From the NCBI RefSeq assembly GCF_029227855.1, contig NZ_CP074356.1: a DNA stretch of 64,000 nucleotides; one strand, given 5' to 3'. A program made the position numbers and the translations under genes. This DNA is from Escherichia coli. Its GTDB lineage: Bacteria; Pseudomonadota; Gammaproteobacteria; Enterobacterales; Enterobacteriaceae. The notes beneath the pieces are model-generated. The model was not told the DNA's origin and did not search any database. It saw only the letters and a list, made by a program, of their open reading frames with translations. Below are positions 17,733-20,019 of this stretch, in pieces (the stretch's first letter is position 1; each line of letters starts with the position of its first letter).

Positions 17733-17862
17733 ATGAATACTAACGTTTTTCGACTGCTCCTGCTGGGAAGCCTGTTCAGCCTTAGCGCCTGTGTGCAGCA
17801 AAGCGAAGTGCGACAGATGAAACACAGCGTCAGCACGCTGAACCAGGAGATGACGCAACTCA
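17733..17862 (+). pseudogene. yajI: 5' fragment of lipoprotein gene yajI interrupted by an insertion sequence
   Basis: Signal peptide plus lipobox (MNTNVFRLLLLGSLFSLSAC) and about 43 codons match YajI, then the reading frame runs into IS-derived sequence. Confidence 0.8.
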
Positions 17863-17905
17863 TTGACATCCTCCACGCCCTGAAGGACGTGGATCCCTGC
17901 TACGT

Positions 17906-19114
17906 TCAGGCTGTCGCCTGAATCATTTCGGTGGGTTCCTGCTTCAACGGGCGGCCTGACTGCACCATCTCTCCACAGGCAAGAACGGCGTGCCCCGCCG
18001 CTAAAATGTTACGAGCGCCATTTACATCGGCGTTCGCTGTATATCCACATACCTGGCATCTGAATTGACTTTGTGACAGGCGATTTTCTTTCGCTGTATG
18101 ACCACAGCACGCGCAACGCTGACTTGTGTACGCTGGCGGAACAGCAAGCACCTGACCGCCACTCCAGAGCTGCTTGTACTCAAGCTGGCGGCGCATTTCA
18201 TACCAGCCCTGATCCAGTATCGAACGGTTTAAACCTGATTTTGCCCGGACATTGCGCCCCGGCTGGCTGACCGTACCCGCTGCTGACTTTGACATGTTAC
18301 TGACCTTCAAATCCTCAATGACTATCATTGCGTGGTTTTTGCTGACGGTCGTTGTGACTTTATGAAGGTAGTCCCTGCGGATATTTGCGATACAGGAATG
18401 CAGTCGCTGTATTTTGCGTTTCTGCTTCTGCCAGTTGTTGCTGAATTTGACCTTGCGGCTTAACTGTCGCTGAAGTCTCGCCAGCTTCTTCTGGTTTTTC
18501 TGAAAACTGTTTACAGGCTCAAAGACTGTGCCATCTGACAGCGTGGCGAGTTTAGCCACGCCAGCATCCAGCCCGACCATTGATGCTGAAGGGTGAACCG
18601 GAGTTGATACTTCACTTTCTGTCTGAATACTGATGTACCACTTACCGCAGGACTGGCAGACCGTGACATTTTTCACAACACCCGTGACCTGACGGCTATT
18701 CCGGTAGCGCATCCAGCCAAGTTTCGGCAGAAAAATACGGCTGTTTTCCTGATCGAGCTTAACGCCCTGCGGGTAGCGGAATGCATCATTCTGTCCCCGC
18801 TTTTTGAATCGGGGAAAAGCAGCCCGCTTCCGGAAGAAGTTTTTGTAAACCCGCTCAAGGTCTTTCAGTGACTGTTGCAATGGCTGTGAGGGCGAATCTT
18901 TAAGCCATTGCGTTTCAGTGGCGTTTTTCCACTCAACCAGCCAGGAAGCCATTTTCCCGTAAGGGATGTATTTATTACCGGCCTCATGATTCTCATTCTG
19001 AAGCGCCAGAGCACGATTGAAAACGAAACGACATGCGCCTGCGAAGCGCCTCATTTCACGCTCCTGTTGACCACCGGGTCTTAACTGGAATTTAAATGCC
19101 TGTAGTCGTTTCAC
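17906..19114 (-). CDS. tnpB: TnpB (IS605 OrfB-family RNA-guided endonuclease), apparently intact
   Basis: 402 aa, GTG start; RuvC-like motifs [18 protein letters not shown] and [10 protein letters not shown] plus zinc finger CACCGH...CQVCG. Confidence 0.9.
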
Positions 19115-19121
19115 AGGCCAA

Positions 19122-19600
19122 ATGATACTTTGGTCTGTGAAAAAAGAAACCGATATCCGGCGTGGAAGGCATTGTGTTTTCCTGATGCATGTTCACCTGG
19201 TCTTTGTCCCAAATACCGACGCCAGATTTTTGACCATGACGCGACAGAAAAACCACGCACTTACTTTTCAGATGTATGTGCTGATTTTGAAGCTGAACTG
19301 GTTGAAATGGATGGCGAACCAGATCACGTCCATTTGTTAATTAACTATCCTCCCAAACTGGCGATATCCAGTCTGGTAAACAGCCTCAAAGGCGTATCGG
19401 GTAGGTGACTGCGACGAGATCGACCAGATATTGCAGTCAGGTATTACTACAAAGGCGTTTTGTGGAGTCCTGGCTATTTTGCCAGTAGCTGCGGAGGTGC
19501 GCCAATATCCGTCATCCGCCAATACATTGAACAACAGCAAACACCTGGTCAGGTGGAAAACCGCGCCTTATATCCCCGCCCTGAAGGACGGGGTTTTACG
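19122..19600 (+). pseudogene. tnpA: IS605-type tnpA (Y1 HuH transposase) remnant, disrupted by a frameshift and an in-frame stop
   Basis: HuH motif and downstream conserved region (HVHLLINYPPK...SLKGVSGR, then WSPGYFASSCG) split over reading frames with a TGA at 19406-19408. Confidence 0.6.
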
Positions 19601-19614
19601 GCGCACCGGATAAA

Positions 19615-20019
19615 GAAACAGTCAAAATCACTCAGCAAAACAGGCTGAATGCAAAATCCAGCAGTGGGGTTTACCTTCTGCCTGGAGCGAAAACACCAGC
19701 AAGACTGGAAAGCCAGATCGGTACTTTACGTATGTCGCTGGTGAATATTACGCCTGATACAGATGGCACCACCCTGACGCTACGTATTCAGGGCGAGTCG
19801 AATGATCCCTTGCCCGCATTCAGCGGAACTGTTGAATATGGGCAAATTCAGGGAACAATAGACAACTTTCAGGAAATCAATGTGCAGAATCAATTGATTA
19901 ACGCCCCTGCCAGCGTCCTCGCCCCCAGCGATGTTGATATTCCGTTACAGTTAAAGGGTATTTCTGTGGATCAGTTAGGCTTTGTACGTATCCACGACAT
20001 TCAACCTGTTATGCAGTAA
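19615..20019 (+). pseudogene. yajI: 3' fragment of yajI
   Basis: In-frame translation ETVKITQQNRLNAKSSSGVYLLPGAK...IHDIQPVMQ matches the C-terminal part of YajI. Confidence 0.8.

Follow-up and report, generated by a model that had tools for sequence, protein, structure and literature searches.

The biology of TnpB and its omega RNA has been established since 2021, and the element described here is already catalogued as IS609, with a protein that RefSeq names an RNA-guided endonuclease. What follows is a known mechanism in a known element and its novelty is low; its value lies in the exact coordinates of the ends, the guide and the transposon-adjacent motif (TAM) of one copy, the last of these corrected, in a fold backed by covariation and a covariance model that works for an omega-RNA family of proteobacteria outside Rfam, and in a clear prediction of a natural target, the empty yajI allele bearing TTTAT, which is directly testable in the host Escherichia coli. 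In IS608 the cleavage and guide tetranucleotides are TCAA with GAAT at the right end and TTAC with AAAG at the left end. In ISDra2 the omega-RNA scaffold is 116 nt long, with a UUUA tetraloop and a GUUCAA tail, and its bases -5 to -3 pair with an upstream loop, the resulting pseudoknot being stacked on stem 1 (Nakagawa 2023, PMC10097598; Karvelis 2021, PMC8612924). The ISDra2 sequence that was taken from the supplement is 1-2 nt off the published numbering and was used here for architecture, not for alignment. A 2026 NAR paper in which an “IS609” TnpB was purified used TTAT as the motif in its assay; that protein is 85% identical to the TnpB studied here. A literature search found no report of an IS609 or insQ transcript, nor of processing or cleavage for the element studied here.

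The window, that is the whole stretch of 64,000 nucleotides that was analysed, is set in the ribD-nrdR-yajI-tsx region of E. coli. Here the lipoprotein gene yajI, which starts at 17733 on the plus strand, is split by an IS200/IS605 element of the IS609 type, whose features are collected in Table 1. The element shares with that type the IS605-like divergent tnpA/tnpB layout and the TTAT/TTTAT motif, and it is 98% identical in DNA to the K-12 insQ copy (IS609), with identical ends. Its TnpB is 85% identical to that of the IS609 listed in ISfinder, so that it would be classed as an isoform related to the type element, and it further departs from the type in its dead tnpA and in its location in yajI. 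Identical or near-identical yajI insertions are annotated in RefSeq as an “RNA-guided endonuclease InsQ/TnpB family protein” next to a pseudogene of an “IS200/IS605-like element IS609 family transposase”, and the insertion is carried by 340 of 5,426 complete E. coli genomes.

We consider it highly probable that positions 17847-18000, read on the minus strand, are the omega-RNA (reRNA) gene of this element; by analogy with the studied systems we infer that the RNA and its TnpB would be active in this copy. A scaffold with a guide taken from the yajI flank had been proposed here in a first-pass annotation, and the mapped ends, the intact TnpB and a strand-specific covarying fold uphold it, while the proposed TAM and the length of the scaffold had to be changed.

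The ends were located by alignment with the uninterrupted yajI of K-12, in which the left flank ends at 17862 (...CAACTCA) and the right flank starts at 19610 (ATAAAGAAACAG), with one differing base in the latter flank (ATCAAG in K-12, ATAAAG in the window strain). When a 280-nt query was laid across the right end, other IS609-type copies (at the ydcO, yfaV, yfeD and ytfB-side loci and on a plasmid) matched it only up to 17863, and empty yajI genes matched it only from 17862. Six further full copies in E. coli, 1,747-1,748 bp long, have ends identical to those of the window element, and the sequence made by joining 17803-17862 to 19610-19669 is 100% identical to that of natural uninterrupted yajI genes. 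Together, the K-12 alignment, the ends of the copies and the natural joined-flank matches place the element at 17863-19609 and, judged by sequence, the insertion is precise and without target duplication. The right-end junction, which had been put at about 17863, is thus exact, and with it the guide that had been predicted as the reverse complement of the flank from 17862 down to 17847 (or to 17843 for 20 nt). The left end had been expected near 19615 but lies at 19609. The TAM that had been read there, GTTTC at 19615-19620, is ordinary flanking sequence: the junction is at 19609/19610 and the motif next to it, five bases away from the earlier position, is TTTAT. The misplacement probably arose from the difference between the K-12 allele and that of the window strain noted above.

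Table 1. Features of the IS609-type element in yajI. Positions are those of the window; bracketed negative numbers count from the right-end boundary, with -1 = 17863.
Feature	Position	Strand	Basis or remarks
Whole IS609-type IS200/IS605 element	17863..19609 (1,747 bp)	- (tnpB-sense)	K-12 empty-site comparison; copies with identical ends; joined flanks
Predicted 16-nt guide, 5'-UGAGUUGCGUCAUCUC-3'	17847..17862 (20 nt if to 17843)	-	flank right after the right-end boundary
Right-end tail, GGAUGUCAA	17863..17871	-	ends in the putative TCAA cleavage site; near-invariant in relatives
P4, right-end subterminal hairpin	17872..17893 (-31 to -10)	-	9 bp, UUCA loop
Conserved junction, GCAGGGAU (family consensus GUAGGAAU)	17894..17901	-	includes the 3' strand of P2; GAAU-like motif by the hairpin foot
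P3 hairpin	17902..17926 (-64 to -40)	-	tnpB stop UGA (17906-17908) in its 3' strand; 7/7 basal pairs compensatory
P2 (CC/GG)	CC 17930-17931 with G 17896-17897 (-69/-68 with -35/-34)	-	invariant C-G pairs
P1 (CCUGU/GCAGG), with the bulged hairpin P1b inside it	17938..17979 (-117 to -113 with -80 to -76); P1b 17949-17971 (-109 to -87)	-	covariation
P0, 5-bp hairpin in tnpB codons 372-376	17986..18000 (-138 to -124)	-	4/5 pairs compensatory, 99% paired
tnpB (insQ), intact	17906..19114 (402 aa)	-	ORF; ISDra2 alignment; NCBIfam
tnpA pseudogene (Y1 HUH transposase)	19121..19552 (432 nt)	+	compared with the intact tnpA in L008
Left-end subterminal hairpin, CCCCGUCC-UUCA-GGGCGGGG	19574..19593 (19573-19593 in the repeat comparison)	-	direct repeat of the right-end hairpin; partial covariance-model match, 13 bits
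Transposon-adjacent motif, 5'-TTTAT-3'	19610..19614	-	directly 5' of the left end

Minimum-free-energy folding of the E. coli sequence by itself gave a structure that was not significant (z = -1.5) and was partly wrong; the fold was resolved only by comparison with relatives. A protein homologue search returned only near-identical E. coli proteins, which are useless for covariation; relatives were instead collected by a search of representative proteins followed by alignment and a scan in which each species was represented by a single genome. The scan yielded 80 loci from Enterobacterales, beta- and gamma-proteobacteria and others, with TnpB proteins 59-86% identical. Conservation 3' of tnpB stops exactly at ...GGAGGAUGUCAA, with complete divergence beyond, in about 70 of these loci, and the stop holds in about 100 relatives overall. 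The fold was derived from alignments of the last 145-200 nt with RNAalifold. Folded singly, nearly all of 59 sequences were predicted to form the nested P1/P1b structure, despite differing stem sequences.

In the alignment of 37 sequences the resulting fold of seven helices is paired in 94.1% of cells, compared to 41-50% in slid controls, and 25 of its 37 pairs show compensatory changes; none of 500 shuffles reached the observed values. Furthermore, the search for omega-RNA structure with a covariance model that had been suggested at the outset gave matches: a custom model built from this alignment was found at full model length, with 96-162 bits, in at least 45 relatives outside the seed. The window, whose own sequence is in the seed, scores 149.9 bits. 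Aligned by the model, and hence in an alignment that leans towards the structure, the non-seed relatives are paired in 94.5% of cells with compensatory changes at 30 of the 37 pairs. Since G-U pairs are abundant, the fold is specific to the tnpB-sense strand. The scores of the covariance model are far beyond chance.

On the same comparative evidence the scaffold is around 138 nt long, reaching to about 18000 and overlapping the last ~31 codons of tnpB together with the right end. The span given before, 17843-17960, is too short, its scaffold of ~98 nt leaving out part of the covarying structure. The scaffold begins at tnpB codon 372, past that of D363, and its overlap with the gene is confined to the weakly conserved C terminus of the protein. 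In its P3 helix the stop codon covaries with its partner, UGA/UCA being swapped for UAG/CUA in relatives. The subterminal hairpin had been described with a stem of 5 bp; a hairpin does exist at this place, but it is the longer P4, which in the RNA of tnpB sense reads UCCACGUCC-UUCA-GGGCGUGGA and shows compensatory changes at 7/9 pairs in alignment A4 and 9/9 in A5, with 94-97% of cells paired. The E. coli copy carries one A-C mismatch in P1b. In several relatives the P4 loop holds structured insertions of 25-40 nt (L042, L043, L044, L049, L052, L063, L067, L070, L072 and L073), and in others (L031, L062, L068, L076 and L077) the P1b loop is replaced by an extended stem; the rest of the scaffold is unchanged in both groups.

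There is little primary-sequence similarity between this RNA and the omega RNA of ISDra2, and the two are alike in architecture. Each spans the 3' end of tnpB together with the right end, reaches into the gene only where it encodes the weakly conserved C terminus, and has a tail ending in UCAA. In both, the last hairpin (P4 here, corresponding to stem 4) is capped by a UUYA tetraloop and lies ~10-30 nt from the guide, and a stem 2 near -35 encloses the stem 3 hairpin. The helices parallel stems 1-4 of ISDra2 in position as well as in order: pseudoknot hairpin (a candidate in the window element), stem 2 around stem 3, stem 4, UCAA tail and guide. The window element differs in the length of its scaffold (~138 nt against 116 nt), in an extra domain, P1/P1b, which lies between the candidate pseudoknot hairpin and stem 2 and which ISDra2 does not have, in a candidate partner loop for the pseudoknot of 5 nt rather than 19 nt, in its TAM (TTTAT rather than TTGAT) and in its tnpA and tnpB, which are divergent where those of ISDra2 are co-directional and overlap.

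A scan for segments complementary to the tail led to the loop of P0. Within this loop, GGRYA in the family and GGGCA in the window, the bases GACA (most sequences) or GGCA (E. coli, 17991-17994) would form the 5' strand of a pseudoknot whose 3' strand is the UGUC at -6 to -3 of the tail (17865-17868). The two segments can pair in 97.9% of cells, compared to 4-50% in slid controls, and 5 of 500 shuffles reached the observed score. Two double changes were seen, A-U to G-C in L030 and A-U to U-A in L081; in addition, the glycine codon of the loop ends in a purine in all 59 sequences, though any base would be synonymous. Four variants with U>C at -6 of the tail are uncompensated and the tail is otherwise invariant, and because the covariation is correspondingly thin we treat this likely pseudoknot as a candidate only. 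Its partner would be a 5-nt hairpin loop within a Gly-His codon pair, where protein and RNA would constrain the same bases. RNAalifold also proposed a long-range pairing of GAU (~18026-18028) with GUC of the tail; this GAY is the invariant codon of the catalytic D363, far outside the structured block, and its conservation is explained by the protein. Other partners (the conserved GNAG downstream of P1, UGAA ahead of that helix's 3' strand and a GAU inside P1b) were rejected because their complementarity is lost across subgroups or because their bases are already used in P1b.

No Rfam 15 family reached its gathering threshold in the window or in 20 relatives, and the matches below threshold were three, all on the minus strand. 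HgcC (RF00062) matches 17850-17969, through the hairpin and the GGAGGAUGUCA tail, with 21 bits against a threshold of 50, and sot0042 (RF02656) matches 17872-18033 with 17 bits against 88; HgcC and the sotRNAs, to which sot0042 belongs, are archaeal RNAs that overlap the 3' ends of tnpB genes. RAGATH-18 (RF03064) covers the P1 stem and its flanks at 17936-17979 with 25 bits against 45. Here the likeness in sequence is close (CCUGUGGAG...UGAAGCAGGAA) and the low score is due to the shorter inner hairpin; the RAGATH-18 motif may represent a piece of the omega RNA of related TnpB elements. Since nothing matched at threshold, this is a proteobacterial omega-RNA family without a curated Rfam model, which reflects the content of the library and not the nature of the RNA.

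The end of tnpB that had been called at 17906 on the minus strand was correct. Residues 3-376 of the protein align to the structures of ISDra2 TnpB (8EXA/8H1J, E 7e-54), with D183, E267 and D363 falling on the catalytic D191, E278 and D361, and the CxxC...CxxC zinc ribbon is present (C334/C337/C353/C356). The protein scores 383.8 bits with the NCBIfam model NF040570 (guided_TnpB), well over the cut-off of 100, and does not pass the stricter IS200_TnpB exception model (305 against a cut-off of 425). As judged from its sequence, TnpB is intact and catalytically complete. The neighbouring tnpA retains the HVHLL motif and the RQYIEQQ tyrosine region, but comparison with the intact tnpA kept by L008 (432 nt, 143 aa; NZ_AP022087; strain WP4-S18-ESBL-07) reveals a 1-bp deletion near 19208, which shifts the frame, and at 19407 a T>G substitution giving a TGA stop; the tnpA of the window copy is, on this reading of the sequence, dead.

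Read in the tnpB-sense orientation, TTTAT adjoins the left end at all five independent E. coli insertion sites, and the right end at the same five sites always finishes in ...GGAGGATGTCAA; TTTAT is likewise placed in at least ten distant relatives. The guide, whose length of 16 nt was set by analogy with ISDra2, is antisense to the 5' fragment of yajI, and its sole match within the window is its own template. At this occupied site the template is preceded by GTCAA in place of TTTAT, which would protect the site from self-targeting. Among complete E. coli genomes the exact empty TTTAT allele of yajI was found in 28, the K-12-type TTGAT allele in 2,026 (or more) and the occupied allele in 340. 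The common empty allele, which is that of K-12 and O157 among others, reads TTGAT and so has the sequence of the ISDra2 TAM.

On the model of the studied systems, transcription in tnpB sense would run through the right end and the RNA would be trimmed to a guide of ~16 nt of flanking sequence. TnpB, with its D183/E267/D363 site, would then bind the omega RNA and cut double-stranded DNA at 5'-TTTAT-TGAGTTGCGTCATCTC. Such a sequence would be offered by an uninterrupted yajI allele, or by the donor joint after excision, the occupied site being spared by its GTCAA. Since tnpA is inactivated, excision is unlikely in the window copy, and since this usual trigger is missing TnpB and its RNA would encounter their target only after the arrival of an empty TTTAT allele in the cell. 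The system in this copy may therefore be idle.

This leads to the alternative that best withstands the evidence, namely that the sequence is competent and the window copy a relic, perhaps little transcribed, with no active complex of TnpB and RNA and no present function. The frameshift and premature stop in its tnpA point this way, as do the annotation of tnpA as a pseudogene, beside an intact tnpB, in five of six other E. coli copies checked and the absence of the left half of the element from the plasmid copy among them. A promoter scan of the minus strand inside the element found no consensus promoter, and hence gave no start for the RNA; this and the mismatch in P1b also speak for a relic. 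Against this, tnpB has kept its reading frame and is retained at 98-99% identity across many E. coli genomes while tnpA decays, the scaffold scores like those of relatives (150 bits), and occupied TTTAT alleles far exceed empty ones. We regard a relic as possible but less likely than not.

A bolder proposal, which we think improbable, is that IS609-type copies lacking tnpA persist as an allele-specific drive, TnpB and its fixed guide destroying empty TTTAT alleles of yajI that arrive from outside or arise by recombination. This would explain why the TTTAT allele is mostly occupied (340 against 28) and why the common empty allele is TTGAT.

Much less probable than a relic is that the conserved structure is a transposon end read by TnpA on single-stranded DNA, with no functional RNA. 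P4 is indeed the subterminal hairpin of the right end and is mirrored at the left: 17872-17893 and 19573-19593 are a 90% direct repeat, both forming hairpins in the same orientation on one strand, and there are no terminal inverted repeats. The right end finishes in TCAA, with GGAU (GAAU in the family) 5' of its hairpin, and the left end is marked by TTAT, with AAAA 5' of the left hairpin; GGAAU upstream of the hairpin and TCAA at the terminus are similar to the guide and cleavage tetranucleotides of IS608. As DNA, P4 and the GAAU/TCAA motifs would be used by TnpA too, so that part of their conservation would not be specific to the RNA. However, a TnpA of the IS200/IS605 type is known to need only the subterminal hairpin and nearby bases, and this would not account for P0, P1, P1b and P3, which covary strongly as far as 138 nt into the element, in tnpB codons or beside them, nor for an order of helices which matches that of the solved ISDra2 omega RNA.

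Equally hard to credit is a structured 3' region that acts in cis on the tnpB mRNA (on its stability, termination or translation), or in trans as a small RNA, and not as a guide: P3 sequesters the stop codon, a terminator-like hairpin lies 22 nt past the junction and RNAs overlapping the 3' ends of tnpB genes were described before their function was known, but the conserved block stops exactly at the transposon boundary with variable flank next to it, as at a guide junction, and close TnpB homologues have been shown to use such an RNA as guide.

The position of the stop codon varies among the loci with an omega-RNA gene of this family. In ~20 relatives (L020, L025, L028, L034, L038, L047 and about 14 others) the tnpB frame crosses P3 and the stop is a UAG supplied by the tetraloop of P4 (UUUAG), only 17 nt short of the end of the transposon; the remaining relatives have their stop in the P3 3' strand, where it covaries with the bases opposite. 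The terminator-like hairpin, CAGCGUGCUGACGCUG followed by UGUUUCAUCU, lies at 17825-17840 on the minus strand, 22-38 nt past the right-end junction and antisense to yajI; it could influence where a transcript that reads through the junction primarily ends, or be there by chance. In one betaproteobacterial MAG (L044) the omega-RNA model matches a second time over its full length, though more weakly (33 bits), at 5003-5172 on the plus strand. This second match lies ~1.2 kb downstream from the one linked to tnpB and may be a tnpB-less or decayed right end. Several short contigs of relatives break at the right-end boundary, and L009, L013, L040, L084 and other short draft contigs run out at the right end or a few bases inside it, which is consistent with multi-copy elements breaking assemblies. 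L013 itself (NZ_BMTT01000064.1, 2,057 bp), from an assembly of Streptomyces mutabilis, carries an IS609-like element of enterobacterial type with TTTAT at its left end and a TnpB 80-82% identical, and looks like contamination or a very recent transfer.
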